Shown in pieces: positions 1,977-26,461 of a stretch of 64,000 nucleotides of DNA; position 1 is the stretch's first letter, and each line of letters begins with the position of its first letter. A model generated the notes under the pieces. The model was not told the origin of the DNA, searched no databases, and worked only from the letters and a program-made list of their open reading frames with translations. Position numbers and translations under genes: made by a program. The DNA is from an uncultured Fibrobacterota bacterium (GTDB taxonomy: Bacteria > Fibrobacterota > Chitinivibrionia > Chitinivibrionales > CAYFVL01): contig CAYQOU010000006.1 in NCBI GenBank assembly GCA_964419255.1, forward strand, positions 1,167-65,166, read 5' to 3'.

Positions 1977-2008
1977 ACCATGAAGGTTCAAAAAAATATC
2001 GAAAACTC

Positions 2009-2172
2009 TTTCAGGTAGGTCTCCTGGCTTTCCCGGTGCTGTCGGCCTTCCCATCCCGCAGAGCGAGACAGTGACCTGGATTGACAGCCCCCGCGCATAC
2101 CATTAGCGCAGTATTGGGATTACAGTGGCAGGACCGCTCCGGATTCTCACCGGTATTCCCTGGCACCTGAAA
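2009..2172 (-). promoter_or_regulatory. Cobalamin (B12) riboswitch
   Basis: The minus strand reads TTTCAGGTGCCAGGGAATACCGGTGAGAATCCGGAGCGGTCCTGCCACTGTAA...GGGAAGGCCGACAGCACCGGGAAAGCCAGGAGACCTACCTGAAA. This matches the conserved core (GGTGCC, AGGGAA, CCGGTGAGAATCCGG, GCCACTG) and the B12 box (AGCCAGGAGACCT). P1 can form between TTTCAGGT and ACCTGAAA. Confidence 0.85.
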
Positions 2173-2499
2173 TGCAAGAAAAATGTAACCTAAAATAGGT
2201 TTATGTGCATAGCATTGGCAAGAGGCACACCGGATTTGCGTGATCATTTGAAAATAATGGTGTTGATGATACCTATTGCTTGAATGAGAGAAATATCTTA
2301 AAGCTACATTCGCAATTTTCACAGACAACTTCACTAAAAAAACGAAGCTGTCGCCACTTTGGACAATAGAAACCTCTTGTCTCCTCCGGCCAAGGCCTTT
2401 TGTTAAGCGGACAGGCAACAATTCCTGCCGAAAGCACGCCTCGTATAATGTATTTTACTTACCGATACTATCTTTGATTTCATGACAATTTGAGGCTCT

Positions 2500-4983
2500 A
2501 TGCTGCTTGCAACACTTCCCTTCTCCGATCCGGTGCTTATTTTCGCCGCTGCTATGCTTCTGATCCTTCTGGCGCCACTTCTTGCCCGCAGGCTTCGTCT
2601 GCCCGATGTCGTGGGGCTGCTTCTGGCCGGTATCATTGTTGGGCCGTATGGATTCGGTATCCTTGCCCGGGATGATACCATCGAGCTTCTCGGGATCGTG
2701 GGCCTGCTTTTTATCATGTTTTCGGCAGGCCTGGAGATCGATCTCAATCAGATGCGGCGAAATAAGAACCATACCGCCGTGTTTGGGCTTATCACCTTCT
2801 CCATCCCCATGATCCTGGGCATCGCCATGGGAACGACGTTGTTTGGGATGAGTGTTCCGGTGGCGATTCTTCTGGCCAGCATGTTTTCATCCCATACCCT
2901 GGTCACCTACTCTATCGTCAATAAGCTGGGACTCACCAAATCGCCCTCGGTCACCACCACTCTGGGGGGTACGATTCTGACCGATACCCTGGCGCTGCTT
3001 ATTCTGGCGATTATCGCCGCCTCCAGCAAGGGGGAGATCAGCCCAAGTTTTTGGATTCAGCTCTTTTCGTACATGGCGATATATGTAACGGCGGTGATTA
3101 TTCTTGTTCCTCTGGTGGCGCGGTGGTTCTTCCGCTCTCTGAATGTGGATGAAAACGTACAGTTTGTGTTTGTGATCGCCCTCACCTTTCTGGTGGCCTA
3201 TCTGGCCCATGTCGCGGGGCTTGAGCCGATCATCGGGGCGTTTCTGGCGGGCCTGACACTCAATGCGTTTATTCCGGGAAAAAGCCTTCTCATGACAAGA
3301 ATTCACTTTGCGGGAGATGCGCTTTTCATTCCATTTTTCCTATTGTCGGTAGGAATGCTTGTCAATATCGAGCTTCTTCTCACCGGGAGTCGGGCATGGT
3401 TGATTTCCATTGGCATGACCGCTGTGGCGCTGGTGTCAAAGTACATTGCTGCCGATCTGACCGGCAGAATCCTCAAATATAACGGAAGCGAAAGATCTTT
3501 GATCTTTGGTCTAAGTGTCAACCAGGCAGCTGCAACCCTGGCGGCGGTGCTTGTAGGCTATGAGCTTGGTCTTTTCACCGAAAACATCATCACCGGCACT
3601 ATTTTGATGATTGCAGTCACCTGTATTGTCGGATCGATCTTTACCGACAAGGCGGGACGAAAGGTCGCCTTACAGGAAGAGCGGGCGGAAGTTTCTCCCG
3701 AGACTTACCAAAACCGAATTCTGATTCCGCTGGGCGGCCGCGAGGGGGCCCGTGAGCTTCTTGATATCGCCTTTCTTCTGCGGGAACGCTCTTCACACGA
3801 GCCGCTTTATCCCATACGGGTCGTGCAGGAGGGAGGGGATACTGACGCACAGGTCGCCTCCGCCGAGAAGATACTTGCGCATACGGTTGTGCGTTCCATG
3901 GCGGCCAACGTTCCGGTGATGCCTATCACCAGTGTCGATATCAATGTCATCTCCGGGACACTTCGTTCGATGAAAGACTACCGTATCTCTACGGTCGTGA
4001 TGGCCTGGAACGGCATACCGGGGCATAAAACACGGGTTTTTGGCCGTAATATCGATGCCATCGTGGAGCGCAGCCGCCAATTGATCATGTTAAACCGTAT
4101 CATAAGACCGGTCAACTCGGTGGGCCGCCTTGTGGTGATTCTTCCTCCCTTTGCACAAAGAGAAGTCGGATTCGGGCAGCTGACCGCTACAATCCGAACC
4201 CTTGCGGACCAGGCGGGCGCATCGATACTGGTTATCTGCGACTGCGATACCCAGGCAGCTACGGAGGATCTGATAAGCAGCGTGCGACCGACTGTGCGTA
4301 TACACTTTGCGTCATACACCTCATGGAAAAGTGTATTGGATGAGGTGCGTAAGCAGCTTCGGCCGAATGACTGGCTTATGCTGATGAGCGTGCGTAAGGG
4401 TGAAATCGCCTGGCAGCCAACGCTTGACAAACTGCCGAAGCAGACCGCGGTCATGTTTCCGGACAATACATTCTCCGTACTCGTATCGCCCACTGAGCGT
4501 TATGTCACACTGAAAAGCCCCGAAACGACCTCCCAGATCTTTACGGTCTTTAAGGAGGAGCGCATTCTTCTGTCGATTGATACATCCGACTGCCGCGAGG
4601 TTATTCACCTGCTTTTGGAGAGATACTACGAGGAAGGCAAAGAGATGCAGCGGCTTGAGGAAGAGCTTTACCTCATGAGCCAACACGAACCGGTGGAGCT
4701 GATTGAGGATGTGGTGCTACTTCACACCTATGTAAAAAGCGTGAATGAGACGGTTACATTTCTGGGCGTATCAAATCAACCGCTTGAGATCCCGCTTGCA
4801 TCCGGTAATCCCCGCGCAGTCATCATACTTCTTGATCCGGAAGGTCAGGAACCGGCCAAACATCTCGAAGCCCTGGCAAACATCGCCAAACTGATCCGCA
4901 TCCCCGGTGTAGTGGAAATATTGGAACAGGTAAATGATTTTGACTCTCTTGTGCTGGAGATTGCCTCCCGGACTGAGGAATAA
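2500..4983 (+). CDS. CPA2-family (Kef/NapA-like) cation:proton antiporter with a long cytoplasmic C-terminus ending in a PTS EIIA type-2 (EIIA-Ntr-like) domain
   Basis: 827-aa ORF. The N-terminal ~390 aa are polytopic with a Na+/H+ exchanger signature (LPDVVGLLLAGIIVGPYGFGIL, FIMFSAGLEIDL). The C-terminal ~145 aa resemble EIIA-2 (DVVLLHTYV with a candidate phospho-His, AVIILLDPEG, LANIAKLI). Confidence 0.8.
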   Translation: MLLATLPFSDPVLIFAAAMLLILLAPLLARRLRLPDVVGLLLAGIIVGPYGFGILARDDTIELLGIVGLLFIMFSAGLEIDLNQMRRNKNHTAVFGLITFSIPMILGIAMGTTLFGMSVPVAILLASMFSSHTLVTYSIVNKLGLTKSPSVTTTLGGTILTDTLALLILAIIAASSKGEISPSFWIQLFSYMAIYVTAVIILVPLVARWFFRSLNVDENVQFVFVIALTFLVAYLAHVAGLEPIIGAFLAGLTLNAFIPGKSLLMTRIHFAGDALFIPFFLLSVGMLVNIELLLTGSRAWLISIGMTAVALVSKYIAADLTGRILKYNGSERSLIFGLSVNQAAATLAAVLVGYELGLFTENIITGTILMIAVTCIVGSIFTDKAGRKVALQEERAEVSPETYQNRILIPLGGREGARELLDIAFLLRERSSHEPLYPIRVVQEGGDTDAQVASAEKILAHTVVRSMAANVPVMPITSVDINVISGTLRSMKDYRISTVVMAWNGIPGHKTRVFGRNIDAIVERSRQLIMLNRIIRPVNSVGRLVVILPPFAQREVGFGQLTATIRTLADQAGASILVICDCDTQAATEDLISSVRPTVRIHFASYTSWKSVLDEVRKQLRPNDWLMLMSVRKGEIAWQPTLDKLPKQTAVMFPDNTFSVLVSPTERYVTLKSPETTSQIFTVFKEERILLSIDTSDCREVIHLLLERYYEEGKEMQRLEEELYLMSQHEPVELIEDVVLLHTYVKSVNETVTFLGVSNQPLEIPLASGNPRAVIILLDPEGQEPAKHLEALANIAKLIRIPGVVEILEQVNDFDSLVLEIASRTEE

Positions 4984-5124: not shown

Positions 5125-7401
5125 TCAGGTATAAAGCATACGATTGGGTCTCTTCATAACCGTCAAATTTAATTCTTCACACAAATCAGCTGCGCTGCCG
5201 CCGCCTATTGAAACGCCATCGATACGGTGCACCGAAACCACACCCATGAGCGCATTGGTCATGAAAACGCAATCGGCTTTTTTCAGTTCATCAAGGGTTA
5301 TGAGGCGCGTTTCTACGGTTTCGCCCCGGGATTGCAGTAGATCGCACACTGCTTTTTCCATCGTTCCGGGAAGTACATGTTCCGAGGCAGGCCGATACCA
5401 GATACCGTCGATTATACAGAGAATATTTGCCGTAGCAGTCTCACTCACTGAGCCGTCATAGTTTAGTATAATCGCCTCATCCGCTCCCTGTTTTTTGGCC
5501 CATTGGTTGGCTATTTTGCTAAACATATAATTCATGGTTTTATGAGAAGACAGATGAGAGTACCTCCTGTTCGGATAAGCGGCACAATACAGCCCGTCCC
5601 TTCCGACAGTTTTCAGACGATGAACGTATGGCCGGGCAGTAACCATCATCGACATGGTATCTGGCTTACCCGATTCTCCGGCCGCTGCAAGTACCTTTAC
5701 AGCAGCGACATCTTCGTACAGTCCGCTACGATCAATGACCTGGCGTATAATATCATTCCAGGTAACATCGGGCGGTTCTGTCCCGAAAAAGTGCTGCCAG
5801 GATTTGTTAAACCGCTGGAGGTGCTGCTCCAGACGGCAGGGCACACCGTTTTGGACACGTATGGTTTCGAATATTCCGTACCCGTAAACAAATCCATCGC
5901 CGGTAACCGGCGCACTGATGCCCTCCAACGGCATGAACTTTCCATTGTACCATGCGATGAGGGAAGGCTTTTTACTTTTCGCGGATACTCCGCTGATTGC
6001 ATGCATCAGTGTCTGCCCCTTATGCAGCGTCTCTTCGAATTCGTCGGCCGGATCCGAATCGTACACGATACCGCCTCCAACAGAATACACAAGTCTACTG
6101 TCCTTGATTGTAGCTGTACGGATAGCGATTGACAGGTCCATTGTATCATGAAAACCAATATAGCCGATAGATCCGGTGTAGATATGACGTCGGACCGGTT
6201 CGAGTTCATCTATAATTTCCATAGATCTGATCTTCGGACAACCGGTAATCGATCCACCCGGAAACGTTGCACGAACCAAATCGACCATATCCTTATCATC
6301 GTCAAGCACACCATCAATGATAGAAACTAGATGGAATACATTTTCGTATGCTTCCACGCGCTTATGCTCACGCACCTTCACCGATCCGGCCGAGCAGACC
6401 TTCCCGATATCATTTCGTAAAAGATCAACAATCATCGACAGCTCGGCATCATCTTTACGGCTGTTTGCAAGCTGGTCCCGGTTGGCGGCGTCCTCCTGTG
6501 GTGTTTTACCCCTGGGTTTAGTACCCTTGATCGGACGGGTTTCAACACGTCTCCCACGAGCTTCAATGAATCGTTCCGGTGAAGTGGAAACGATATGATG
6601 ATCACCGGCATTAATGTAGGCAAAAAAAGGTGCCGGATTTCGTTGAAAGAGGGTAGAAAAAAGTGTGAAAGCATCGCCTTTAAAAGCCGTTTCGAACCGT
6701 TGAGACATGTTTACCTGATACACATGGCCGCGTGCGATATAATCACGTATAGTTTCGATCGAACGCATATATTCATCACGAGCGAAACCGGATTTCAAAC
6801 CGGTGCCGGTCTCGGGAGGTTTTGCTGCGCCCGCTGACACACCTTTTCTCAAGGCATACTCAAAAGATTCTATACGCTGTTGCGCATTACCGGCGGTCTC
6901 AGAAACGTATAGTGTTTTCTTTTTCTCAAAACGATCTTCAACTAAAATTATCGATGGTGCAACCATATACAGATGAGGCAGATGTAAATCCTCTATACTT
7001 GTCCTGGGAAGAACTTCTATGCAATCTTTCAGATCATAGGATAGGTAACCCATTAGACCGGCGCAAATCGGAAGCGGATATTCGGTGTCCGGCAATTTGT
7101 AGTACCGACATATGTATTGCAAAAAATTCAGAGGATCAGCCTCTATAGTCTTTGAGCATCGTTCCGATTCAATTGTTACACGATTCAGATCTGCTTTTAA
7201 TGAAAGCCACGGATGTATGCCCATGATATTGTATCGGGCACAATCGGCAGCTCCACCGCTGATGAGCGTGACGGTTCCGGGAAGGTGAGCAAATCTCGAT
7301 GCGATCTCAAGAAATGAAAGACCACTTTGCAAAGCAATCGAAACCACACGATGCGAAGGTTGGGGTAAAAATTCAAGTATCGACTCAAAAGAAGTAGTCA
7401 T
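5125..7401 (-). CDS. pabB: Aminodeoxychorismate synthase component I (PabB) fused to a class-IV aminotransferase-fold aminodeoxychorismate lyase (PabC)
   Basis: 758 aa. Chorismate-utilising enzyme motifs are present: HVYQVNMSQRF, SPERFIEARGRRVETRPIKGTKPRG, TFPGGSITGCPK. The C-terminal ~270 aa are class-IV like (GDGFVYGYGIFETIRV, VLPGTMEKAV). The start overlaps the pabA stop by 4 nt. Confidence 0.88.
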   Translation of the reverse strand: MTTSFESILEFLPQPSHRVVSIALQSGLSFLEIASRFAHLPGTVTLISGGAADCARYNIMGIHPWLSLKADLNRVTIESERCSKTIEADPLNFLQYICRYYKLPDTEYPLPICAGLMGYLSYDLKDCIEVLPRTSIEDLHLPHLYMVAPSIILVEDRFEKKKTLYVSETAGNAQQRIESFEYALRKGVSAGAAKPPETGTGLKSGFARDEYMRSIETIRDYIARGHVYQVNMSQRFETAFKGDAFTLFSTLFQRNPAPFFAYINAGDHHIVSTSPERFIEARGRRVETRPIKGTKPRGKTPQEDAANRDQLANSRKDDAELSMIVDLLRNDIGKVCSAGSVKVREHKRVEAYENVFHLVSIIDGVLDDDKDMVDLVRATFPGGSITGCPKIRSMEIIDELEPVRRHIYTGSIGYIGFHDTMDLSIAIRTATIKDSRLVYSVGGGIVYDSDPADEFEETLHKGQTLMHAISGVSAKSKKPSLIAWYNGKFMPLEGISAPVTGDGFVYGYGIFETIRVQNGVPCRLEQHLQRFNKSWQHFFGTEPPDVTWNDIIRQVIDRSGLYEDVAAVKVLAAAGESGKPDTMSMMVTARPYVHRLKTVGRDGLYCAAYPNRRYSHLSSHKTMNYMFSKIANQWAKKQGADEAIILNYDGSVSETATANILCIIDGIWYRPASEHVLPGTMEKAVCDLLQSRGETVETRLITLDELKKADCVFMTNALMGVVSVHRIDGVSIGGGSAADLCEELNLTVMKRPNRMLYT

Positions 7402-7988
7402 GTCAATCGCTCCTGAAGCGGACCCATTCTGAGAAAATTCTCGATGATTGTAAATCCATTCTCTGTAAGAAAGCTTTCCGGGTGAAACTGTACGCCATGA
7501 AGCGGAAAGACGCGGTGGGATAAGCCCATAACAACGCGATCCTCTGATCGTGCGGTGACTACCAGTTCTTTACTAACCTTATCAGCTGCAAGCGAGTGGT
7601 AACGGGCAACTATGGTGGGCAACCCGACTCCTTTGAAAAGCCCCGTTTGATTGTGTTCCACAGCACAGGTCTTGCCATGCATAGGCAAAGGTGCTCGAAC
7701 AGTTATTCCACCAAATGCTTCGTTGATACACTGCAAGCCCAGACAGACGCCAAGAATCGGAGTAGATTTGTATAATCGAAGGATTAAGTCAATAGAAATA
7801 CCGGCCGATGAGGGATCTTTGGGTCCCGGGCTGATAACAATATAATCAGGTGATCGTTGAGCTACGTCCTCGACCGAAATCTTATCTGCCCTGAATACAG
7901 ATACATCAATAGGATATGTACGAAACATCTGCACTAGATTAAAAGTGAATGAGTCGTAATTATCTATAACAAGTAGTGACCGATTCAT
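7398..7988 (-). CDS. pabA: Aminodeoxychorismate/anthranilate synthase component II (glutamine amidotransferase)
   Basis: 196 aa: LLVIDNYDSFTFNLVQMF, catalytic Cys in ILGVCLGLQC, and HGVQFHPES. Lies 12 nt downstream of the NRPS stop and overlaps pabBC. Confidence 0.9.
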   Translation of the reverse strand: MNRSLLVIDNYDSFTFNLVQMFRTYPIDVSVFRADKISVEDVAQRSPDYIVISPGPKDPSSAGISIDLILRLYKSTPILGVCLGLQCINEAFGGITVRAPLPMHGKTCAVEHNQTGLFKGVGLPTIVARYHSLAADKVSKELVVTARSEDRVVMGLSHRVFPLHGVQFHPESFLTENGFTIIENFLRMGPLQERLT

Positions 7989-8000
7989 TATCCACTTCCC

Positions 8001-11000
8001 TTACAACATAGTATACCCGCCATCGACGGGCAGGTATGTTCCTGTCATGAATTGAGAAAGATCACTTGCAAGAAAGAGTATGGCACCGGCGATATCACGC
8101 GGAAGTCCATTGCGCTGCAACGGGCAATTGGTAGCTGCAGTTTCTTTGATTTTGTTTGACATCGCCGCGGTCGCATCTGTTAAAGTTAATCCGGGAGCAA
8201 CAGTATTAATACGAACCCCATCCGGCCCCAGCTCAATAGCCAATGATCGTACGAATGCGTCAAGTGCCGATTTCGCAGCACTATGTGCGGCATACCCGGG
8301 ATGAGGATGTTTAGACATAGTGCTGGAGACGGCAATTATGCTGCCACTTTTCCGTTCGGCCATTTCAGGAATAACCTCTTGGGAAAGCAGAAAGAGCGAT
8401 TTAATTTCGTTTGTCAGTTTACGCTCGAATTCAATCCAGTTGCTCTCCTTAAACGGCTTGATTTCAAAACCGATTGCAGCGTTAGAGACGACTACGTCGA
8501 TTTTTCCATAATGACCGCGCACCTTTTCAATGAGGGACTTTACCTCCTTCGGGTCAGTCGTATCCCCTTGAAATATTTCGGCCTCTCCGCCATCCTCCTG
8601 AATGATCTCCTTTACCATCATTGCACGTTCTTCACTCTTCAGATAGTTAACAGCCACCGACGCACCCTGACTTGCAAGAAGGCGTACCGTGGCCCTGCCG
8701 ATACCACGGCTTCCACCGGTCACGAGCACAACTTTATTTTCGAGAAGTCCGGGTGCCCGCACCTGACTGATGTTGAACCCGCTTGTCCGGGTCTTTTCAA
8801 TGAATGTATCGCCATCGTCGTCTGGGGATTTATACGCATCATCCAGGCTTTCCGCAATTTCATTGAGATGAGGATATTTGAAAATATGCGAAAGACCAAT
8901 TTCTACTCCCAGGTGTTCCTTGATTCTTGCAATTAGACGAGTCGCTGACAGAGAATGGCCTCCCAGTTCAAAGAAATGAGCCCGCTTTCCGATACTGTCT
9001 TCTGCAATTTCTAGCACTTCCGACCACAACTCGGCAAGCGTCCGCTCCATTTTGGTTGTGGGAGCCTCATAGATATCACTCTGCTGAAGGATGCCGGAGG
9101 AAATTGTTAGTGCTTTACGATTAAGCTTCCCATTTGGTAATTTTGGCATCTCATCCAGGGTGATAAAAGCGGTGGGAACCATATAGGAAGGCAGTCTTTG
9201 ATCGAGGAATGCCCGTAATTGACTGATATCAATATTGTTATCCGGCTTTGGGATATAGAATGCAAGCAGCTGCCCCTTTTCTCCAACCACCGCCCGTAAG
9301 CCCATTCCCTCAAATTCACCCATCACCTTTTCCACATGGCGCACATCAACGCGAAATCCTCTAACCTTTACCTGGAAATCCCACCGCCCCATAAATTCCA
9401 GATTTCCGTCAGGAAGATAACGTACAACATCTCCAGTATTATAAATGATACCGCCATGTTCCTTACTGAATGGGTTTTGCTTGAACCGTTCCTTTGTGAT
9501 ATCGTCCAGATTATGATACCCCAGAGCCATGCCAGCTGACGCCACATGTGCTTCACCGGGTACTCCTTCCGGAACAGGTCGTCCCTGGCGATCAAGCACA
9601 TATATTTTTGTGTTCTGGATCGGTCTACCTACGGGCACAAAGCCCTGCGCGTCATCGAAATCGGTGGCATCGTAGTAGGCGATATCGTTAAGCTCGGTAC
9701 ATCCATAGTTGTTAAGCAATCGAGCCTGGGGAATGACAGATCGAAACAGTAATACGATTTCGGCGGTAAGTGGCTCCCCGGCAGTAAAACAGTAACGCAG
9801 GGAAGGAAGTGTAATGCCGGTCTTTTTCATATACGCAAGGACAGATTGCATATGTGAAGGGACCAGATTTACCCGGCTCGCATTACATTTACGAAGTGCG
9901 TCAACAAACAGGGACGGATCTTTAACCGTCTCAGTGTCAATAAAAATCAGCGGGCAGCCATTAAGCAATCCGGCAAAAATTTCTTTCACCGAAACGGCAA
10001 AAGCAATGGTAGTCTTCTGTACGATCATTTCATCGTCAGCAAAAGGCCACCTGGTTTCCATATTACTCAGCCAATTTATAAGCTGCCTGTGCGGTATTCT
10101 CGCGCCCTTTGGTATACCGGTCGAACCGGATGTGTACATCAGATATGCCAGATCATCCGGCCTTATTGATACAGTGGTCGGTGCAGGAATCTCATCATGA
10201 AAAAGCGGTAGCTTCTCCTCAACAACACAGCACGTATCCTTCGTCAGGCCAAATTGCTTTTTCTGCTTTTCTGTACATATGGTCAGTCTCGGATCGGCAT
10301 CCCGGGTAATCAGACGTAAATACTTTTCCGGATAGGATGGATCAAGGGGAACGTAGGCCGCCCCGGCTTTCCATATCGCGAGAATAGCCGCCAGTGCGGA
10401 GGCATTTCGTTCCATGCAAACAGCAACGATCTCACCCGGTTTCACGCCACGCTGAAGCAGTGTCGCCGCATATGCGTTTGCAGCCGCGGCTACATCCCTA
10501 AAGCGCCATTGTCCAAAAGAATCCAGGCAGGCAATGGCATCGGGCGTTTTAGCCACCTGTTCATCCCAACGGGTAACAAAATCAGGAAGATTTTCAATCG
10601 ACCGATTCGTCTGATTGAATTCTACAAACAAACGCCGGCGATCCGCTTCGGTAAACATTGTCAATTCAGACAGCTTTCTCTTGCCATTTTCCATCATCTC
10701 GCGCAGCAGTTGTTCATGATGTTTCAAGATATTTTTCAGAGTAGATGCATTATATAAATCCGAAGCATACATCACCTCGACTTGCAGGTCATTTCTGTTT
10801 CCGGTGTATGACAACTCGATTTCACATCGTGCGATAGCATTCTTACCCGTTGCCGTTCGGTATCCTTCATAGCCGGGGTATGAGCCAAACTTGACACCTC
10901 CGGGAAGAGAATGCTCAAGATGGGTTCGGGGAAAGTTCTGGTGACGGATAACCAGTGGTACAAGCGAACTCGTTGCATCACCGCGCTCAACCGCCGAAGA

Positions 11001-12017
11001 ATAGACGATGCGCTCGAAAGGTACGGTCTGATGATCAAAACCGCCAAGAGCAACCGAGCGCACTGCACCCATAAAATCATCGACAGTCACATCTTCGTCA
11101 ACAAAAATTCGCAATGGAAGTATGTTGACAAAAAAACCGATCATTCTTTCAACCTCCGGAAGAATCCTGCCGGAGGTTGTCGTTCCGATGCAAAGATCTT
11201 CCTTACCGGTATAACGTTTGACAGTCAATGCAAATCCGGCAAGAAGACACATAAACATCGTACACCCATGGGATTGGGCAAACCTTTCCAGTGATTCTGA
11301 AAACTCCTTGGGATAAGAATACTCCAACCTCTCACTGATACTGCCGCTGTTTGGGGTCCGCAGAAAATCGGTAGGTAATTCCAGTGATGCTTCATATCCC
11401 TCAAGGTGTTTGTGCCAATAGGCCAAATCTTTTGAATGATCAAGTTGTCTCTGCCAGTGAACAAAATCTGTATATTGAACGGGTAGTGACTCCAGCTGAT
11501 GATGCCGCCCGGCCGAAAAAGCTTCATAGAGATGCAGTAACTCAGAGAAAAGGATATTCTCTACAGACCATCCATCTGCGGCGATATGATGCACATTTAG
11601 AAGCAACAGGTGACGTTTCGGATTGATTCTGAGAAGCACACCCCTGATGATTGGCCCTTTCTCAAGATCAAATACATGGCGTGCGTTTTCTTCGATGTAA
11701 CCTTGAATGTCGCTTTCATCAATGTCGATAAGAGGTAGTGAAAAGTCGCTCCTTTCTGTGATTATCTGCACCATTTCCCCATGAGCATTTGTCGTAAAAC
11801 ATGCCCTCAACGTTTCATGCCGATTCAGTATTTCTGTAAGACTCCTGTTTAAAGCAGAAACATCCAGGCTTCCTTCAAGAACAAACACCACGGGAATATC
11901 ATAGCTGAGGTCCTGGGGATTTTTACGTTTAAGCAACCACATCCTCTCCTGAAACCATGAGAGTGGATGTTCTTTGGCCTCCCGTTTAACCGGTACTATA
12001 GTCGTTCTTTGAGTCAT
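8001..12017 (-). CDS. Single-module non-ribosomal peptide synthetase: condensation - adenylation - carrier protein - C-terminal SDR (FabL/FabI-like) domain
   Basis: C domain: SWFQERMWLL, RHETLRACF, HHIAADGWS. A domain: WKAGAAYVPLD, LAYLMYTSGSTGIPKG, A4 = IAFAVSVKEIF, NNYGCTE, YNTGDVVRY, GRWDFQVKVRGFRV, NGKLNRKAL. T domain: FFELGGHSLS. SDR: VVLVTGGSRGIG, SNAAIG, GYAAHSAAKSAL. The track ORF starts at TTG 12041; ATG 12017 with a GGAGG 9 nt upstream is more likely. Confidence 0.92.
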   Translation of the reverse strand: MTQRTTIVPVKREAKEHPLSWFQERMWLLKRKNPQDLSYDIPVVFVLEGSLDVSALNRSLTEILNRHETLRACFTTNAHGEMVQIITERSDFSLPLIDIDESDIQGYIEENARHVFDLEKGPIIRGVLLRINPKRHLLLLNVHHIAADGWSVENILFSELLHLYEAFSAGRHHQLESLPVQYTDFVHWQRQLDHSKDLAYWHKHLEGYEASLELPTDFLRTPNSGSISERLEYSYPKEFSESLERFAQSHGCTMFMCLLAGFALTVKRYTGKEDLCIGTTTSGRILPEVERMIGFFVNILPLRIFVDEDVTVDDFMGAVRSVALGGFDHQTVPFERIVYSSAVERGDATSSLVPLVIRHQNFPRTHLEHSLPGGVKFGSYPGYEGYRTATGKNAIARCEIELSYTGNRNDLQVEVMYASDLYNASTLKNILKHHEQLLREMMENGKRKLSELTMFTEADRRRLFVEFNQTNRSIENLPDFVTRWDEQVAKTPDAIACLDSFGQWRFRDVAAAANAYAATLLQRGVKPGEIVAVCMERNASALAAILAIWKAGAAYVPLDPSYPEKYLRLITRDADPRLTICTEKQKKQFGLTKDTCCVVEEKLPLFHDEIPAPTTVSIRPDDLAYLMYTSGSTGIPKGARIPHRQLINWLSNMETRWPFADDEMIVQKTTIAFAVSVKEIFAGLLNGCPLIFIDTETVKDPSLFVDALRKCNASRVNLVPSHMQSVLAYMKKTGITLPSLRYCFTAGEPLTAEIVLLFRSVIPQARLLNNYGCTELNDIAYYDATDFDDAQGFVPVGRPIQNTKIYVLDRQGRPVPEGVPGEAHVASAGMALGYHNLDDITKERFKQNPFSKEHGGIIYNTGDVVRYLPDGNLEFMGRWDFQVKVRGFRVDVRHVEKVMGEFEGMGLRAVVGEKGQLLAFYIPKPDNNIDISQLRAFLDQRLPSYMVPTAFITLDEMPKLPNGKLNRKALTISSGILQQSDIYEAPTTKMERTLAELWSEVLEIAEDSIGKRAHFFELGGHSLSATRLIARIKEHLGVEIGLSHIFKYPHLNEIAESLDDAYKSPDDDGDTFIEKTRTSGFNISQVRAPGLLENKVVLVTGGSRGIGRATVRLLASQGASVAVNYLKSEERAMMVKEIIQEDGGEAEIFQGDTTDPKEVKSLIEKVRGHYGKIDVVVSNAAIGFEIKPFKESNWIEFERKLTNEIKSLFLLSQEVIPEMAERKSGSIIAVSSTMSKHPHPGYAAHSAAKSALDAFVRSLAIELGPDGVRINTVAPGLTLTDATAAMSNKIKETAATNCPLQRNGLPRDIAGAILFLASDLSQFMTGTYLPVDGGYTML

Positions 12018-12068
12018 TGTACATTTGCCTCCGAAAAGCAAATCGTGTTGCTTTCTCCATTAAATATC

Positions 12069-12094
12069 TGAATTAAATATCTGATGCTGATTAA
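12069..12094. repeat. Perfect tandem duplication of a 13-nt unit (ATTAAATATCTGA x2) just upstream of the NRPS start
   Basis: Read directly: 12069-12081 and 12082-12094 are identical and abutting. They lie ~50 nt upstream of ATG 12017, inside a ~575-nt AT-rich untranslated region. Confidence 0.9.
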
Positions 12095-12593
12095 CGAAAT
12101 TATATAATAAGTGCTTAATTTCAGTGATGTTATCCTAAACAAATCATTCTTTATTATGAGCACGATACATGATCTTCGTCGATATATCATTCTACCAGTA
12201 TCGCACAAGTTACCAAAATCAAGGTGCTGTATTCAATCACTCTTAAGAATCTGTAACCTTTTTGTTCCAAAGGTAGTCCAGAGCTGTGATGATAAATCGT
12301 TCAATTATACATGCGGATACTGCAGTTATTTATACTCACTCACAATTGGCCACGATCCGTTTCGGCTATGTAAAATACCTATTTAACTCCATGAAAAAGC
12401 AATATATATCCTGCCTGTTTGTGAGGGACATTGGATGAGAATGAGATATTACGAAATTCACTCGCAAAAGAGCATACATCTCCTCTGATAAGCTTATCTA
12501 TCAGTTAGACTTATCATTCTATGTCTTCTCGATTAGCAAAAAGTAAATACTGCGCACAATTAGGCGGTGTTTGGATACCCGGGATCTTCCCGA

Positions 12594-14195
12594 TCAATGA
12601 TTCCTCTCCCCCTCTCCCATTATTTTCACCAGTACTTCTTTTATCTGATCGAAGCCAAAGGGCTTTTGCAGAAAGCCTTTGGCGCCATTCTCGATTGCAT
12701 GTTGTACGTTTTCAGTCAGCGTGTAGCCCGAAACCATGATAGCATTGATTTGCGGGTCGATTTCCTTGAGTTTAAAAAAAGTTCTCCCACCATCCATACC
12801 CGGCATAACCATGTCAATAAATACCGCCCGTATATCTCTGTGTTTATCTCGAAACACAGATACTGCCTCTTCTCCACTGTCCGCAACCATGACGCTATAA
12901 CCCAGAGAGCTGATCATATCCTTTATGGTCTGCGATACATCCCTGTCATCGTCTACTATCAGAATTTGCTCTTCTCGAACACTATTCAGAAATACATTCT
13001 TCTTTTTATCACCAGCTGAAACCTTATTGGTGATCGGCAGATACAGGTTGAAGGTAGTCCCTTTTCCTAATGTACTATCCACGGTAATCGCCCCACCATG
13101 ACTCTTGGCAATTCCATATACGGCGGCCAACCCCATACCGGTGCCCTTATTTTCCTTTTTTGTGGTGAAAAACGGTTCAAAAATATGGTCCAACACATCT
13201 TTCTCGATTCCGGTTCCGGTATCCTTTACCGAAACTACTACATAATTGCCAGTCTGAAAGGTAAAGCTCAGATCCCTGCCGAAATTCTGATCAAGGTGTT
13301 GGTTGAATGTTTCGATGGTTAGAATGCCACCATCGGGCATTGCATCTCGGGCGTTAAGTGCAAGATTCAGAATTGCATTCTGCAGATGTGAAGCACCGCC
13401 CCAGACATAGGGAGAAGCCGCTTCAGTCAACGATTGAATAGTAATATTCTTTTGCATGCTTCTGTTAAGCAGGTTTATCGTTTCGACGACTATACTGTTG
13501 ATATCAACCACCTGCTGATCATACATCCCCTGCCTGGAGAAAGCCAGAAGCTGTTTCGTTAAATCGGCGGATCTTTTACCCGAGTTATAAATCTGATTGA
13601 GTACCCTCTTAGCCTCCGAGCTCATTTCATGTCTGTTCAGAAGAAACTCACAATATCCCTGAATGATTGTCAGATGGTTATTGAAATCGTGAGCAACACC
13701 ACCGGCAAGCTGCCCGACCGCTTCCATTTTTTCTATCTGATGCAGCCGGGCATTGGCTTTCTCAAGCTCCTGGGTCCTTTTTGAAACCATATCCTCAAGG
13801 TTATTCTTATATTCCTCCAATCTCCTCTCAGCCTTTAGTCGCTCGGTGTTCTCTTTTTGAAGTTTACGAATAAGGGAACTTATGGTACCGATCACTATTG
13901 CAAACAGTATATGCATAATATTGCCCAACACCGATTCCATACTGAGAATATCATACGTCTGTATGTTTATCGTCTCTATAATCGTTGCGGTCAGAAATCT
14001 ACTGATGGCATGCATGATAAGTCCGGGAATGATTCCCCACCACCAGGCGATAAAGAAAATCGGTATCAACCCCAGATTAGCCGCCATCGTGCTTTCTGCG
14101 GCAGCAAAAGACACCCAGAACGCCAGGGAATACAGAACCGACAGAATGACTATGGTTAATGTACAACTCCTGAGAGGTGGTTTAATGATACTCAT
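12594..14195 (-). CDS. Hybrid sensor histidine kinase / response regulator (membrane N-terminus, HisKA, HATPase, C-terminal REC)
   Basis: 533 aa. Four predicted TM helices with the WWWGIIPG motif, then a coiled coil. H-box VAHDFNNHLTII, N/G boxes LNLALNARDAMP, DTGTGI, GTGMGLA. REC: ILIVDDDRDV...VFIDMVMPGMDG. Confidence 0.9.
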   Translation of the reverse strand: MSIIKPPLRSCTLTIVILSVLYSLAFWVSFAAAESTMAANLGLIPIFFIAWWWGIIPGLIMHAISRFLTATIIETINIQTYDILSMESVLGNIMHILFAIVIGTISSLIRKLQKENTERLKAERRLEEYKNNLEDMVSKRTQELEKANARLHQIEKMEAVGQLAGGVAHDFNNHLTIIQGYCEFLLNRHEMSSEAKRVLNQIYNSGKRSADLTKQLLAFSRQGMYDQQVVDINSIVVETINLLNRSMQKNITIQSLTEAASPYVWGGASHLQNAILNLALNARDAMPDGGILTIETFNQHLDQNFGRDLSFTFQTGNYVVVSVKDTGTGIEKDVLDHIFEPFFTTKKENKGTGMGLAAVYGIAKSHGGAITVDSTLGKGTTFNLYLPITNKVSAGDKKKNVFLNSVREEQILIVDDDRDVSQTIKDMISSLGYSVMVADSGEEAVSVFRDKHRDIRAVFIDMVMPGMDGGRTFFKLKEIDPQINAIMVSGYTLTENVQHAIENGAKGFLQKPFGFDQIKEVLVKIMGEGERNH

Positions 14196-14303
14196 AGGAT
14201 GTCACTTCTCCCGATAGTAAAAGACAATATTTGGTAAAAAAAAGATAAGACATTACTGGCACCAGGGATGAAATCAAAAATAAATCACTACCTAACCCCA
14301 AAA

Positions 14304-15887
14304 TCATGAAGAAATAGACACCAGCGTCTTTTTCAACTGCTCATAACTGAAAGGCTTTTGCAAAAATACTGCGGCCCCATTATCCAGTGCATGTTGAACA
14401 TTTTTAGTCACCGAAAACCCGGATATTATCACCGCCCTTATATCCGGGTTTATTTCCTTAAGCTTTGTGAATGTCTGCCCTCCATCCATACCGGGCATGA
14501 GCATATCTATGAAAACATATGTTATGTCTTTGTGTTTGCCGCGATACAATGAAACCGCTTCCTCACCGCTGCCCGCAACCAGGACCCGATAGCCAAGCCC
14601 CTTAAGCATTTGCCTGATTGTCTGAGAGACCTGCTGGTCATCATCCACAATTAGCACCTGCTCATCATAAGTTGTGCCCAATGTCAGGTTTTCCTTTTCA
14701 TATTTTTCAGCCCGTTTTTGCGTTACGGGAAGATACAGGAGAAAAGAGGTTCCCTCACCGATTTTTGAGTCAACGGTGATGGCTCCCCCGTGACTCTTTG
14801 CAATCCCGTATACCGCTGCCAATCCCATCCCCGTGCCCTGCTGCTCTTTTTTAGTCGTGAAAAACGGCTCGAAAATATGGTCAATCACCCCTTCTTCGAT
14901 TCCCGTTCCGCTATCCACAACAGAAACAACAACATAGTCGCCAGGCTGAAATGAAAACCCATGAACCTGACCAAGCGATTCGTCGAGGGATTTATTCTCT
15001 GTCTTTATGGTCAACACTCCCCCGTTCGGCATAGCATCGCGCGCATTGAGAGCCAGATTCAGTACTGCGTTCTGAAGTTGTGCGGAACCTCCCCATACCC
15101 AGGGATACGTCGCCTCAGATAACGGTATGAGCGTAATGTTCTTATGTATACTTCGCGAAAGAAGATTTGCCGTTTCATTGACGACTTCATTCATATCGAC
15201 AACCTGCATTTCGTACATTCCCCGACGGGAAAATGCCAGCAGCTGTCTGGTAAGATCGGCCGATCTTCTCCCCGAGTGATTGATCTGCTTAAGCACCCTT
15301 CTCAATTCCGGATCCAGTTCTGTTCGCCCAAGAAGAAACTCGCAATAGCCCTGAATAATAGTCAGATTGTTGTTGAAATCATGAGCGATACCACCCGCCA
15401 GCTGTCCAATAGCTTCCATCTTTTCAATCTGATGTAGCCTCCTGTTTGCACTATCAAGCTCCCGGGTTCTGAGTGCGACGAGTTCCTCGAGATTGGCCTT
15501 GTACTCCTTAAGCATATCCTCGGCCTTTCTCCTTTCCTCCACTTCCCGCTGAAGTCTGCGAATGAGAGCGCTAAACGAGCCAACCACCACCGCAGACATG
15601 ATATACATGCCCGTCCCCAGAACGCTTTGTAAGCTTAGGATTCCATGAGTTTCAACATCTGCGAAGGAAATCATTATCGATGTCCATACAGTATTCACGC
15701 ATTGCATTATGATTCCCGGAATGATCCCCCACCACCAGGAAACGAAGAATACCGGGATGAGGCTGAAGGCTGTCACGATAGTATCTTCAACCAAATTAAA
15801 ACAGGTGTAGAATATGGCCGCATAAAGAAAGGAAAAAATGAGGATAGAAAATGCAGGGCTTTTAAATGGAGGCTGAATTCTTATCAT
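14304..15887 (-). CDS. Hybrid sensor histidine kinase / response regulator, tandem paralogue of 12594..14195
   Basis: Same architecture, and by eye ~75% identical across the kinase core (IAHDFNNNLTIIQGYCEFLL, GTGMGLAAVYGIAKSHGGAITVDS). The track ORF begins at 16013. By parallel with the paralogue (MSIIKPPLRS vs MIRIQPPFKS), ATG 15887 is the likelier start. Confidence 0.88.
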   Translation of the reverse strand: MIRIQPPFKSPAFSILIFSFLYAAIFYTCFNLVEDTIVTAFSLIPVFFVSWWWGIIPGIIMQCVNTVWTSIMISFADVETHGILSLQSVLGTGMYIMSAVVVGSFSALIRRLQREVEERRKAEDMLKEYKANLEELVALRTRELDSANRRLHQIEKMEAIGQLAGGIAHDFNNNLTIIQGYCEFLLGRTELDPELRRVLKQINHSGRRSADLTRQLLAFSRRGMYEMQVVDMNEVVNETANLLSRSIHKNITLIPLSEATYPWVWGGSAQLQNAVLNLALNARDAMPNGGVLTIKTENKSLDESLGQVHGFSFQPGDYVVVSVVDSGTGIEEGVIDHIFEPFFTTKKEQQGTGMGLAAVYGIAKSHGGAITVDSKIGEGTSFLLYLPVTQKRAEKYEKENLTLGTTYDEQVLIVDDDQQVSQTIRQMLKGLGYRVLVAGSGEEAVSLYRGKHKDITYVFIDMLMPGMDGGQTFTKLKEINPDIRAVIISGFSVTKNVQHALDNGAAVFLQKPFSYEQLKKTLVSISS

Positions 15888-16373
15888 CGCGAAATTTTTC
15901 GTCTTGGATATGCTGGTTCCCAAATGATGGTCAATAATATACTTATTGAGAGAATAGAATGCACAGATGCCCCCCCAAAAAAGACTCAAAAGCTTGAAAC
16001 AATAAACATACACTCAACTGCGCGATTTTCTATCGGCGATTCGCTCAACTCCTGAAAACTTGAGAGCTTCAGCGATCTTGAAATTTCTTGGACGGCTATT
16101 CCGCACGACTGCCCCATTGCCTCAAATGCTTCTGTACTCCCGGGATTGCGCGATTCAGCCCCCCAACGCAATGTTTATGGCAGGGTAAAGTTATATTTTT
16201 TTGGCAGCAGAATGTGAGGCTATGAAGGCCAAACAGGCACCACATGGAGCAGTTTTGGAAACAAAACAGCCGTAACATTATAAGCAGAGTTTGCTGAATT
16301 GCCGCGGGTGAAAAGAAACCGCATCCTGTTACTCCGCGAGAATCATTGTTCCATGGCCTGTTGTAGAAAATGC

Positions 16374-17264
16374 TTACCCAATGTAAAAGATCACTATTGC
16401 CGCGGTCATGAGAACAGCCGCAAAAATCCTCCTAATGAAGATGTTTTTGTCTGTTTTCTGCTCGAGCGATACATGACCCATATGCGCTACGGCGGCTCCG
16501 ATAATGATCGACAGAATGCCGCGGGTAGACTGGACGATGTTTCCATAAACCACTCCGATTGTGGCGAAGCATGAGAACAGAAAAAACATCCCGCAAAACC
16601 AGCTGATTGCGTAGGGAGTTGCTCCTTTCCAGTGCTCCGGCCGGTGTTTTCGGCCAATGAGGGCGAACGGAACGGCCACGATACCGCAGAGAAGGTATAG
16701 AGCAGCCACCGAGAAGGCGGATGCGTGAGCAATAGAAAGATAGGACAGGCTGTCGATCAGCTGCTTGATATTTATATCTGAAAGCGAGTAACAGATAACC
16801 GACACGGCAACACCGGCAATTGATTTGAGAGGCAGTTTACCGCCGATTCGGTTCAGGAGTGCAGCAGCAGCTGAACTGAGGATAACCGCGCTCCACTGCA
16901 CCGGAGAGAGCTGTTTGCCAAGAAGCGGAATACTCAATGCTGCCAGAAAGAATACTTTCATGCCCAGAAGTGGTGCTATACGGGATGCCTCAACGGTGCT
17001 GAGAGTCAGAAAAAGCGAGGTTTGGGCGATCAAGTAAAATATTGCTGCTCCGGCCACCAGCCGGAAAACGGTTGCGGGGTTTGCGATTTGATCCGGCCAC
17101 AGCAAAACGAGTGCGGTGGCCGAAAGAAAACCCATGATCAGGTGAGCCAGAACCATAAGATGGTAGCTCCCCTCCTTGTGTTGTGTCACAAAGGCACGGG
17201 AAAAGACATAAGAAACAGACTGGCCCAGTGCAGCCCCCAGTCCCAGAAAGATGCCAACAATCAT
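16374..17264 (-). CDS. EamA/DMT-superfamily transporter
   Basis: 296 aa, ~10 hydrophobic helices arranged as two EamA-like halves; no soluble domain. Confidence 0.7.
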   Translation of the reverse strand: MIVGIFLGLGAALGQSVSYVFSRAFVTQHKEGSYHLMVLAHLIMGFLSATALVLLWPDQIANPATVFRLVAGAAIFYLIAQTSLFLTLSTVEASRIAPLLGMKVFFLAALSIPLLGKQLSPVQWSAVILSSAAAALLNRIGGKLPLKSIAGVAVSVICYSLSDINIKQLIDSLSYLSIAHASAFSVAALYLLCGIVAVPFALIGRKHRPEHWKGATPYAISWFCGMFFLFSCFATIGVVYGNIVQSTRGILSIIIGAAVAHMGHVSLEQKTDKNIFIRRIFAAVLMTAAIVIFYIG

Positions 17265-17524
17265 TGATTATCCTTTTCCAGCTATTGCGTTCAGAATCTT
17301 GCTGTAAAACAGGTGAATCACAAACGATTCGGTTTTCCCCTGCATTTGATTGACAGAAAATTCATTTACTCACATTTCCACTTTTTTTCAGTGGTGTGAA
17401 AATAGCATATGACCAGTCCAGCTTTGTTAAGCCGAGATACTGAAAAAAAAATCGGCAATTAGATTCCCTCTGCACTGTTCCGGACGTATTTTACCGATAA
17501 TATAAACCAGACACCGGAGGATAC

Positions 17525-18295
17525 ATGAAAAAAGCAGCAATGATGTTACTGGTTCTTTCCTGTGCAGTTGGTACTGCCTACTCTCAAACGGCACATGTAT
17601 TCGGTTCAGTCGGATACGGTTTCGGATATGGAGGATATACCGGCGATATTTTTCAATCATACACAGACGACAGGGGTGAGCTGAGCGACGTTGAAGATCA
17701 TTATTTCAATTATGGCAGAGGCATAAAGCTCGATGTAGGTGGCTGGTACGCACTTATGGAGGATTTGGGAGTTCAGGCGGCTCTCGGTTTCTCCTTCGGG
17801 GTACCCGATATTAATACTGAGCAGAACACGACTGCTTTAGTCGATACAAGAACCGATAACACAGAATATGATTTTTTCGTTTTTTCCATCAAGGTACAGG
17901 CGGTACCAAGATTTACCGTCGTTCAGCTTCTGGATATGTACCTGGGGGTAGGAACCGGACTATATTTTGCCAGCCTATCCTCGCAAACTGAGGCGGAGAT
18001 AGGTGGGACTACATATACCGAATCAGAAACATTCGATTCGAAAGCTGCTTTGGGATTCAATGGTTTTATGGGAGCAGATTTCCCCCTGATGGAAGATCTT
18101 TCTTTATTTGGAGAAATTGGATTCGAGCAGTTATCCTTCACCTGGAAGAAGCAGGAAATCACCGAAACAAACATCCCGGGTTCAAGCGAAAGTACTGTCA
18201 CCTTTGATAAGGATAGGCCGGATTTACCGGCCCCGCCAAAAATTCCCGGATCCAACTGGAGCCTCCGTGTAGGAGTCAAGTATTGGCTGTTTTGA
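17525..18295 (+). CDS. Outer-membrane beta-barrel protein (OmpA-beta-barrel/porin-like family)
   Basis: Signal peptide MKKAAMMLLVLSCAVGTAYSQ. Alternating hydrophobic/Gly-rich beta-strand pattern and a terminal aromatic residue (VGVKYWLF). Confidence 0.7.
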   Translation: MKKAAMMLLVLSCAVGTAYSQTAHVFGSVGYGFGYGGYTGDIFQSYTDDRGELSDVEDHYFNYGRGIKLDVGGWYALMEDLGVQAALGFSFGVPDINTEQNTTALVDTRTDNTEYDFFVFSIKVQAVPRFTVVQLLDMYLGVGTGLYFASLSSQTEAEIGGTTYTESETFDSKAALGFNGFMGADFPLMEDLSLFGEIGFEQLSFTWKKQEITETNIPGSSESTVTFDKDRPDLPAPPKIPGSNWSLRVGVKYWLF

Positions 18296-18330
18296 CGAAG
18301 AAAGCGACAAAAGGAAAAGACTAAGACATA

Positions 18331-18364
18331 AAGGTGGACACATATGTTCACCTTCTTTTGTTTA
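18331..18364 (+). terminator. Rho-independent terminator of the OM barrel gene
   Basis: AAGGTGGACA-cata-TGTTCACCTT forms a 10-bp stem with one G.U pair, followed by CTTTTGTTT. It lies 36 nt after the stop codon. Confidence 0.7.
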
Positions 18365-18453
18365 TATGGTCACAGAATTACAGCTACCCAATAACAGATG
18401 TTATTTTTCAGTCCCGTTCGCGCCCCCCCAACCATCGGATCCTGATTTTTTCA

Positions 18454-19344: not shown

Positions 19345-19480
19345 ACCGCTTCCCCTTGTGAAACAACCGAATCTTTTATGGGCGCAAAATAAATAAAGAC
19401 AATATGGAATAACCGGAAAAAAAAGAGGGCGAGAAGCTTTTTTTGGCATCCCGCCCCTTTCTTGTGTCGTTGTAATGATT

Positions 19481-20092: not shown

Positions 20093-20302
20093 GAAGTATC
20101 CTCCTTCTGAGTGTATAGAGTGAACATTTTTAATGAGCAAATCCTGTACCACAGTCAAAGGATGAAGGGCTCCACTCGCAGCTGTTTATGAATACGGGTG
20201 TGTTTTGGAACATCATTTGCTTTTTAGTTACCTCAATTCAAGCTCAAAGGCGTAGCAGCCCCGGGCTTTTCGGATAGTGTGATAAGTATCGGCTCGTGAA
20301 CT

Positions 20303-21981: not shown

Positions 21982-22071
21982 TCGTCTTGGCACACTGTTC
22001 GCTGTCCTTTGTACGGCAGAAAGCATCCAGACAGACTCTTGCATCCAAGAGCCGAATCGAAAGGAACATGC

Positions 22072-24306: not shown

Positions 24307-24402
24307 CTATATTTCACAGGGTAGTAGAGCCTATAGATAGCAAATGCAGCAATGAGCCGATTTTCGATCTCGATCTATTCTAACTGGACGAAAGGGATCT
24401 AT

Positions 24403-25455: not shown

Positions 25456-25467
25456 GTGAACAGCTAA

Positions 25468-25493
25468 AGAGGCCCCTTGGGCGTCTCTTTTTA
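25468..25493 (+). terminator. Probable rho-independent terminator after ldhA
   Basis: AGAGGCCCC-TT-GGGCGTCTCT is an imperfect GC-rich hairpin followed by TTTTT, 13 nt after the stop codon. Confidence 0.55.
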
Positions 25494-25536
25494 TGGCTCC
25501 GCAGAAAAAAACAGAAACCCTGATACAATTCGGCAA

Positions 25537-26373: not shown

Positions 26374-26461
26374 TGCAGCGATGAGTTTATCCTAATCCAG
26401 TCGAGCTGTGCTGTAGCAGACAAGCCCCACATTGAAATCAAAAGAAATCATGAAAAAAAGA

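Follow-up and report, generated by a model that had tools for sequence, protein, structure and literature searches.

The window analysed here is a 64-kb stretch of DNA from an uncultured Fibrobacterota bacterium (contig CAYQOU010000006.1). It carries a gene for a one-module nonribosomal peptide synthetase (NRPS) with condensation (C), adenylation (A), thiolation (T) and short-chain dehydrogenase/reductase (SDR) domains, followed directly by the genes pabA and pabBC. Judging from the sequence, we consider it likely that the A domain belongs to the type that activates p-aminobenzoate (PABA), and that the C-A-T-SDR synthetase is fed by PabA and PabBC and builds a PABA-derived compound. The three genes and the domains they encode are listed below, with the source of each assignment (ORF, open reading frame; ADC, 4-amino-4-deoxychorismate; PLP, pyridoxal phosphate).

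8001-12017, minus strand: synthetase gene, encoding a stand-alone C-A-T-SDR protein of 1338 aa (ORF list and translation, Pfam)
10629-11975, minus strand: Condensation domain, residues 15-463 (Pfam)
9105-10565, minus strand: Adenylation domain, residues 485-971 (Pfam, TIGR01733, GrsA alignment)
8850-9041, minus strand: thiolation (carrier) domain (Pfam PP-binding)
8004-8735, minus strand: FabG-like classical SDR domain, residues 1095-1338 (Pfam; alignment to S. aureus FabG 3osu)
7398-7988, minus strand: pabA-like glutamine amidotransferase, 196 aa (Pfam GATase; TIGR00566)
5977-7401, minus strand: PabB half of a 758-aa PabB-PabC fusion (Pfam Chorismate_bind and Anth_synt_I_N)
6520-6534, minus strand: PIKGT motif with the ADC-synthase lysine (sequence reading)
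5125-5976, minus strand: class IV PLP-enzyme half of the fusion, putative ADC lyase (PabC) (Pfam Aminotran_4, residues 509-727)

The synthetase belongs to a large family, which comprises more than 120 clusters at 90% identity. Its full-length relatives, again more than 120, are 50-73% identical and all have the C-A-T-SDR order. A 1338-aa protein of a Chitinispirillaceae (Fibrobacterota) metagenome-assembled genome (MAG) differs from it at only 2 residues. The conservation of the substrate pocket was assessed in a multiple alignment of 116 full-length homologues, to which all counts per homologue below refer. The motifs and pocket residues of the A domain, numbered as in the Stachelhaus code and aligned to GrsA, were located as follows.

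9981-10001, minus strand: A4 core F673-A674-V675-S676-V677-K678-E679 (reverse-strand translation FAVSVKE)
9996-9998, minus strand: Ala674, position 235; Ala in 114 homologues, Val in 2, Asp in 0
9993-9995, minus strand: Val675, position 236; Val in 81, Pro in 35
9984-9986, minus strand: Lys678, position 239; Lys in all 116
9681-9869, minus strand: the remaining pocket residues, given in the next six lines
9867-9869, minus strand: N717, position 278; Asn in 114, His in 2
9786-9788, minus strand: F744, position 299; Ile, Val, Thr or Phe
9780-9782, minus strand: A746, position 301; Ala in all 116
9708-9710, minus strand: N770, position 322; Asn in all 116
9684-9686, minus strand: D778, position 330; Asp in all 116
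9681-9683, minus strand: I779, position 331; Ile, Met or Val
9693-9713, minus strand: A5 motif NNYGCTE, residues 769-775, a variant of the consensus
9516-9557, minus strand: A6 motif GEAHVASAGMALGY, residues 821-834
9126-9128, minus strand: A10 lysine K964, position 517

The first-pass annotation of this DNA had read the A4 core as F-A-V-S-V-K-E and had placed Ala, Val and Lys by eye at positions 235, 236 and 239, with Asp235 missing. The reverse-strand translation agrees with that reading (sequence context in the ORF: TTIAFAVSVKEIF), and the register is upheld by the pairwise alignment to GrsA-PheA, in which F-A-V-S-V-K-E falls on F234-D235-A236-S237-V238-W239-E240 with F, S, V and E identical. 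The GrsA-PheA reference was verified against PDB 1amu_A, with which it agrees at 100% from residue 65 to residue 526; the chain index of 1amu corresponds to the Stachelhaus numbering (D235, K517). Extraction of the full ten-residue code by this alignment, which the annotation had proposed, gave AVKNFANDIK, with Ala at 235. The A5 and A6 motifs, which it had described as off-consensus, also read as it gave them. The Cys of A5 is present in all 116 homologues, the A6 consensus across the family is GELHVASVGMPEGY, and the pocket code is nearly constant from locus to locus, e.g. AVKNIANDIK in Sorangium and Actinoplanes.

According to the literature, Asp235 and Lys517 are kept in all A domains that activate alpha-amino acids. 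A background set was drawn from the output of a HMMER library search with the A domain, in which giant NRPSs ranked first by their summed scores, so that the ranking was of no use for finding nearest neighbours. The set comprised 877 A domains, taken from 150 large NRPSs that are unrelated to the synthetase. Asp235 was present in 866 of these domains, and the x-x-K-N-x-A-N-D-I pocket was found in a single one. The absence of Asp235 in the window domain supports a substrate other than an alpha-amino acid. By its motifs the domain looks active rather than degenerate, since A3 (YTSGSTGIPKG), A7 (YNTGD), A8 (GRWDFQVKVRG) and A10 (NGKLNRK) are intact and the score on NCBIfam TIGR01733 passes the cutoff (362.4 against 317.4). 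The GrsA alignment runs through A8-A10, and the domain contains no domain-sized insertion. A PDB search returned LgrA with 608 bits; a special kinship was rejected, as this score sums two A domains.

The genes downstream of the synthetase point to the probable origin of the substrate. The start of pabA lies 12 nt past the synthetase stop codon in the same orientation, and pabBC overlaps pabA by 4 nt, which gives a unit of three genes in 6.9 kb. PabA scored 177.5 on TIGR00566 trpG_papA (cutoff 121.05). The PabB half of the fusion passed TIGR00553 pabB with 355.8 (cutoff 328.4) and stayed under the cutoff of trpE_most (386.8; cutoff 517.7). Its motif RPIKGTKPRG, residues 288-297 of the fusion, contains the lysine of ADC synthases and not the Ala of anthranilate synthases. 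The class IV half scored approximately 100 bits on each of the pabC, branched-chain aminotransferase (BCAT) and D-amino acid aminotransferase (DAAT) models, under the cutoff of each, and its PDB matches were mixed. It is regarded as a putative ADC lyase (PabC), the fusion to PabB being the one basis for this assignment. According to the literature, proteins that join ADC lyase to the large subunit of ADC synthase are common, and PabC is difficult to distinguish from BCAT.

The three-gene unit was compared with loci from Sorangium sp. So ce394, two Fibrobacterota genomes, several Chitinispirillaceae and Fibrobacter MAGs, MAGs of Polyangiaceae, Cellvibrionaceae and Kineosporiaceae, and one Actinoplanes isolate. 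Fifteen of the loci, the window among them, extended far enough downstream to be informative, and in 13 of these 15 the synthetase gene was directly followed by pabA and pabBC. The unit spans four phyla, namely Fibrobacterota, Myxococcota, Actinomycetota and Pseudomonadota/Gammaproteobacteria. All-against-all clustering of the flanking ORFs revealed no further gene conserved across taxa. The identities of the three proteins vary together: the synthetases are 50-72% identical, the PabA proteins 64-76% and the PabBC proteins 51-70%. Because the gene order recurs in 13 of 15 loci and no other flanking gene is conserved, the unit is, as judged from this comparison, a self-contained cassette that has moved between phyla. 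The suggestion in the first-pass annotation that PABA fits the neighbouring genes is supported by PabA and PabB-PabC directly downstream and by a linkage conserved across phyla. Directly upstream of the synthetase gene, the window has two tandem paralogous hybrid histidine kinases (12594-14195 and 14304-16013, minus strand) with a DUF4118-like N-terminus, HisKA, HATPase and receiver domains; similar kinase ORFs occur upstream of the synthetase in a Polyangiaceae locus (L015) and in L018.

A second NRPS linked to pab genes was found in the background set. This protein, P0179, is encoded at 10001-26974 of locus L019/L020 (1-30000) and has five modules with the codes DFWNVGMVHK, DVWHVSLVDK, DAWVLGNVVK, DAMHLGCTFK and VPKNTANDIK, the last module being C-A-T-TE (TE, thioesterase). 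Its last A domain is the only other domain in the set that combines a non-Asp235 residue with this pocket. Directly 5' of the P0179 gene lie a GATase gene and a gene for a 499-aa protein that passes the pabB cutoff and contains AKPIKGTRPRG. The window C domain shares 32% identity with the last C domain of P0179 and 21-25% with the other C domains of that protein. The P0179 cluster probably makes a PABA-terminated pentapeptide. Because of the pocket, the pab neighbours and the C-domain identity of P0179, we conclude that, in two architectures that differ from each other, this pocket and the C domain that accompanies it are linked to ADC-synthase genes. The P0179 cluster also encodes a class I/II aminotransferase, an FAD monooxygenase, an FMO-like enzyme, an ABM protein, a cupin/JmjC protein and an MFS transporter.

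In the known PABA-specific A domains, Ala replaces Asp at position 235 (lapcin paper, PMC8837603). The window domain has Ala at this position, and genes for PABA biosynthesis are present in the same cluster both in the window and at the P0179 locus. Ala235 and the gene context support the assignment of the window domain to a known kind, the PABA-type NRPS adenylation domains that lack Asp235. The CysK and CysG modules of cystobactamid biosynthesis load PABA in vitro. The first 133 residues of CysK, a part of the C domain of a PABA module taken from the cystobactamid source data, were searched against 119 C domains of the family and 733 other C-domain matches. The median was 96.7 bits for the family and 63.2 bits for the others, and 72 of the 119 family matches exceeded all 733 others. 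The last C domain of P0179 (90.5 bits) was among the best of these others. A control fragment, consisting of the CysK T domain and the start of the next C domain, showed no preference for the family. For the family as a whole, these scores modestly support a clade of C domains that would handle a PABA acceptor.

Other searches for relatives of the characterised PABA lines gave less. The CysK fragment had no match in a protein search, and metagenomes returned only ordinary NRPSs with 36% identity. CysH and AlbIV were not recovered in a search with the CysH AMDH domain. A contig of Spartinivicinus marinus (L021, 1-11555 of JAPJZK010000002.1) carries the edge of an albicidin/cystobactamid-like cluster, with genes for an AMDH-T protein (66% identity to the AMDH domain of CysH), an MFS transporter, a UbiC-like lyase, TauD, a type II thioesterase and a fusion of PabA with PabB, and is cut off before the NRPS genes. 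Two other AMDH loci were considered as sources of PABA modules and rejected, as their codes were of His and beta-Ala type.

Taken together, the conserved pab linkage, the Ala235 of known PABA domains, the case of P0179 and the resemblance to the CysK C domain make PABA the best-supported substrate of the A domain, and we regard this as a strong inference.

In the synthetase as a whole, the order of the Pfam matches is Condensation (15-463), AMP-binding (485-835) with AMP-binding_C, PP-binding (993-1056) and, last, adh_short and adh_short_C2 spanning 1095-1336 (adh_short_C2 at 1104-1336), with KR (ketoreductase) also matched. The start codon is the ATG at 12017; an in-frame TTG further upstream at 12041 is less likely. 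The catalytic residues of the C, A and T domains are invariant in the family alignment. They include H143, H144 and D148 of the C-domain motif HHIAADG (residues 143-149) and the phosphopantetheine serine S1022 (8952-8954, minus strand) within GGHSL of the T domain. The solved structures nearest to the C domain are of the elongation type (Txo2, 212 bits; TycC6, 190 bits). Starter C domains scored at most 62 bits (RzmA-Cs 62, CDA-C1 49), and assignment as a starter (lipo-initiation) C domain was rejected on this ground. The 5' leader of the gene (12018-12593, 576 bp) is non-coding and AT-rich; it had no Rfam match, including none to a folate-type riboswitch, and no conservation among related Fibrobacterota loci. 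No ORF for an MbtH-like protein or a small acyl carrier protein partner was found beside the synthetase gene.

The C-terminal SDR domain, of 245 aa, begins about 40 residues past the T domain and is the most conserved domain of the synthetase (mean column identity 0.75). Compared with FabG and the classical SDR 3-oxoacyl-ACP reductases, it has a like fold and length, is approximately 35% identical to S. aureus FabG, and keeps the NADP motif TGGSRGIG (TGxSRGIG) as well as the Asn, Ser1231 and Lys1249 of the catalytic tetrad. Unlike FabG, it is fused behind an NRPS carrier domain, scores under the cutoffs of all NCBIfam SDR models (TIGR01830 198.8; cutoff 297.75) and, in the alignment to 3osu, has His1245 (8283-8285, minus strand) in place of the catalytic Tyr, so that the full N-S-Y-K tetrad of a classical SDR is not present. 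Among the homologues, position 1245 holds His throughout the Fibrobacterota clade (81 sequences), Gln in the clade of Sorangium, Actinoplanes and Cellvibrionaceae (35 sequences), and Tyr in none. Canonical ketoreductase activity is unlikely for this domain because position 1245 is never Tyr. Residue 1242, three residues before, is Phe in 75 homologues and Tyr in 41. An enoyl-reductase assignment by a Y-x6-K motif was rejected, as Tyr1242 is replaced by Phe in those 75 of the 116. Nor did Pfam match a terminal reductase (R) domain of the NRPS type (NAD_binding_4) in the synthetase. The SDR occupies the place that the thioesterase has in the homologous P0179 module, which suggests that it may have a role in processing or release.

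From these features the following pathway can be proposed. PabA and PabB-PabC, encoded in the same operon, would turn chorismate and glutamine into PABA. The A domain, with its code AVKNFANDIK, would then adenylate the PABA carboxylate and attach it to the T domain as a thioester on Ser1022. The C domain, which is of the elongation type and has its HHxxxDG motif intact, would form an amide bond, most likely by acylation of the 4-amino group of the tethered PABA. The placing of PABA as acceptor follows from the elongation type of the C domain and from its homology to the P0179 C domain, which would use this monomer as acceptor; the step is likened to the terminal module of P0179 and to the cystobactamid and albicidin lines. 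Finally, the SDR, predicted to bind NADP(H) and lacking the Tyr, may process or release the product.

Several observations weigh against this proposal. The class IV half of the fusion could not be separated from aminotransferases (BCAT/DAAT) by sequence. Two loci, L005 and L008 (synthetase at approximately 8000-12000), have neither pabA nor pabBC downstream, and their synthetases, 69-70% identical, have the code AVKNIANDIK; L008 comes from a MAG labelled Bacillota, a label that may be explained by a binning error. The window C domain itself scored 95.5 bits against the CysK fragment, which equals the best background match (95.1). If AVKYVANDAK, given by the first-pass annotation for the PABA domains of the albicidin and cystobactamid synthetases, is the right code, the present family matches it at 7 of 10 positions (A235, V236, K239, A301, N322, D330 and K517); a full-text search of the literature for it returned no match, Ala235 being the only part confirmed. 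Neither the unit nor the 64-kb window encodes a second carrier protein, a thioesterase or R domain, or an acyl donor. The later steps of the pathway stay unexplained because none of these components is encoded and the SDR has lost its catalytic Tyr.

Four other explanations were weighed. The one that survives best, although we consider it unlikely, is that the A domain loads another acid derived from chorismate. This could be 3-hydroxy-PABA, 4-hydroxybenzoate, benzoate, anthranilate or a non-aromatised, ADC-derived aminocyclohexadiene carboxylate, and in the last case the SDR would oxidise or reduce this compound. Such a substrate would suit a class IV domain that is not provably an ADC lyase, would give a task to the otherwise unexplained SDR, and has a parallel in the P0179 cluster, where monooxygenases accompany pabA and pabB. 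However, the unit consists of PabA and PabB-PabC only and lacks genes for a hydroxylase, an isochorismatase or an enzyme like UbiC. In the PabB half, the lysine of ADC synthases stands in place of the Ala of anthranilate synthases, and PabB-PabC fusions are an established route to PABA.

It is also rather improbable that the loaded PABA is the donor of the acyl group. In that case the C domain would pass the p-aminobenzoyl group to a soluble nucleophile without the need for a thioesterase. The nucleophile could be another PABA or an oligo-PABA chain, following the logic of the epsilon-poly-lysine synthetase, or else an amine; with glutamate, for instance, the product would be pABA-Glu. The lack of a TE or R domain, of a second carrier protein and of any conserved partner gene agrees with this scheme, as does a self-contained unit with its own monomer supply. 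The position of the C domain, N-terminal of A-T, and its homology to an elongation C domain that takes this monomer as acceptor argue for the tethered PABA as acceptor instead. No gene for self-resistance or folate synthesis is linked to the unit, no folate-type riboswitch lies upstream, and the SDR would remain without a function in this scheme as well.

The first-pass annotation had named as its main alternative an alpha-keto acid reduced by the C-terminal SDR. The A domain would then activate, e.g., p-aminophenylpyruvate or a branched keto acid, and the SDR would reduce it on the carrier to an alpha-hydroxy acid. The modules that activate keto acids in cereulide (CesA/B), valinomycin (Vlm1/2) and kutzneride (KtzG) biosynthesis likewise lack Asp235 and have a reductase-fold domain in the same polypeptide. 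In those modules, however, a catalytically complete KR is inserted inside the A domain (A-KR-T), whereas the window A domain is uninterrupted and its FabG-like SDR follows the T domain, with His or Gln for Tyr in all homologues. This location and the missing Tyr weaken the keto-acid explanation. The conserved partners are, moreover, genes for an ADC synthase and lyase, which would make PABA, and not keto-acid-forming enzymes, and no PapB- or PapC-like genes were found. We now consider a keto-acid substrate very improbable.

It is scarcely credible that the linkage is incidental, with pabA and pabBC as the folate genes of the cell and an unrelated non-amino acid as the substrate: the window does encode folate-dependent glycine-cleavage enzymes, so that the organism needs PABA, and two homologues lack adjacent pab genes, but the order of the three genes persists between phyla that are very far apart, where every flanking gene differs, the identities of the three proteins move together, and a second type of NRPS with the same pocket is also linked to pab genes.

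The PABA-activating NRPS domains described so far come from a few antibiotics that target gyrase or topoisomerase, namely albicidin, cystobactamids/coralmycins and lapcin/tapcin. The present family is a large group of minimal one-module enzymes that share this type of pocket and would bring their own supply of PABA; its members occur in Fibrobacterota, myxobacteria, actinomycetes and Cellvibrionaceae. With three genes in 6.9 kb the unit is an easy target for heterologous expression, which could yield a new metabolite derived from PABA in a phylum whose natural products are hardly known. Expression could also define a second, checkable PABA code, A-[V/P]-K-N-x-A-N-D-[I/M/V]-K, and reveal the role of a Tyr-less SDR behind a carrier domain. 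More tentatively, and with considerable doubt, the horizontally spread unit might make its metabolite by a chemistry not seen in NRPSs, with the Tyr-less SDR as a novel domain for release, processing or oligomerisation; the products could then be oligo-p-benzamides, p-aminobenzoyl conjugates or reduced aminobenzoyl products.

The rest of the window contains housekeeping genes, including the hybrid histidine kinases, genes for thiamine, methionine and cysteine, a topoisomerase, ComEC and the glycine-cleavage system. No other NRPS, polyketide synthase or carrier-protein gene was found in the 64 kb. A cobalamin riboswitch (Rfam RF00174, 74 bits; 1997-2208, minus strand) precedes a 181-aa ORF (1509-2054) that has only the Plug domain of TonB-dependent receptors and may be a truncated or frameshifted BtuB-like gene. 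An 827-aa Na+/H+ exchanger with a fused C-terminal PTS EIIA-2 domain is encoded at 2500-4983 (plus strand). A block of thiamine and sulfur-amino-acid genes (27659-37035) comprises ThiF (27659-28426), a ThiH-like radical SAM gene (34008-35120), ThiG (35130-35912), two homoserine O-acyltransferase paralogues (29390-30313 and 36142-37035), a Cys/Met PLP enzyme and a PALP enzyme. A stretch of approximately 1 kb at 32962-34008 has no long ORF and no Rfam match at the gathering threshold.

The literature search returned no account of a C-A-T-SDR or C-A-T-KR architecture or of a combination of pab genes, NRPS and SDR. As far as we found, the one-module C-A-T-SDR synthetase with a Tyr-less SDR and its own pabA-pabBC, distributed over four phyla, is previously undescribed. 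Among known enzymes, the chloramphenicol synthetase CmlP is a single-module, NRPS-like A-T-reductase enzyme that uses an aromatic building block derived from ADC. By its described architecture, rather than by sequence comparison, it shares with the window synthetase the single module, the C-terminal reductase-fold domain and the ADC-derived monomer. CmlP differs in that its monomer is the alpha-amino acid p-aminophenylalanine, that a C domain is absent and that it ends in a domain of the thioester-reductase type. In the folate pathway, the branch that leads to PABA has a like domain content, with a GATase in PabA and a PIKGT chorismate-binding domain and a class IV PLP domain in a PabB-PabC fusion. 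Unlike the folate genes, the pair in the window travels with an NRPS gene through distant phyla, in the manner of dedicated precursor-supply genes of secondary metabolism. The closest parallel is offered by the albicidin (Alb01/Alb09), cystobactamid (CysK/CysG) and lapcin lines. These are multimodular, with TE domains, tailoring enzymes and pentapeptide-repeat resistance genes, whereas the window has a single module that lacks a TE and is followed by a Tyr-less SDR at the C-terminus, with no other conserved gene around the unit, and the phyla differ from those of the known producers (here Fibrobacterota and others). Position 278 is Asn here and presumably Tyr in albicidin, if the code that we assume for the latter is correct. 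As in the window synthetase, an A domain of the amino-acid type stands in a C-A-T module in all three lines, with Ala at position 235 and a dedicated PABA supply encoded in the cluster.

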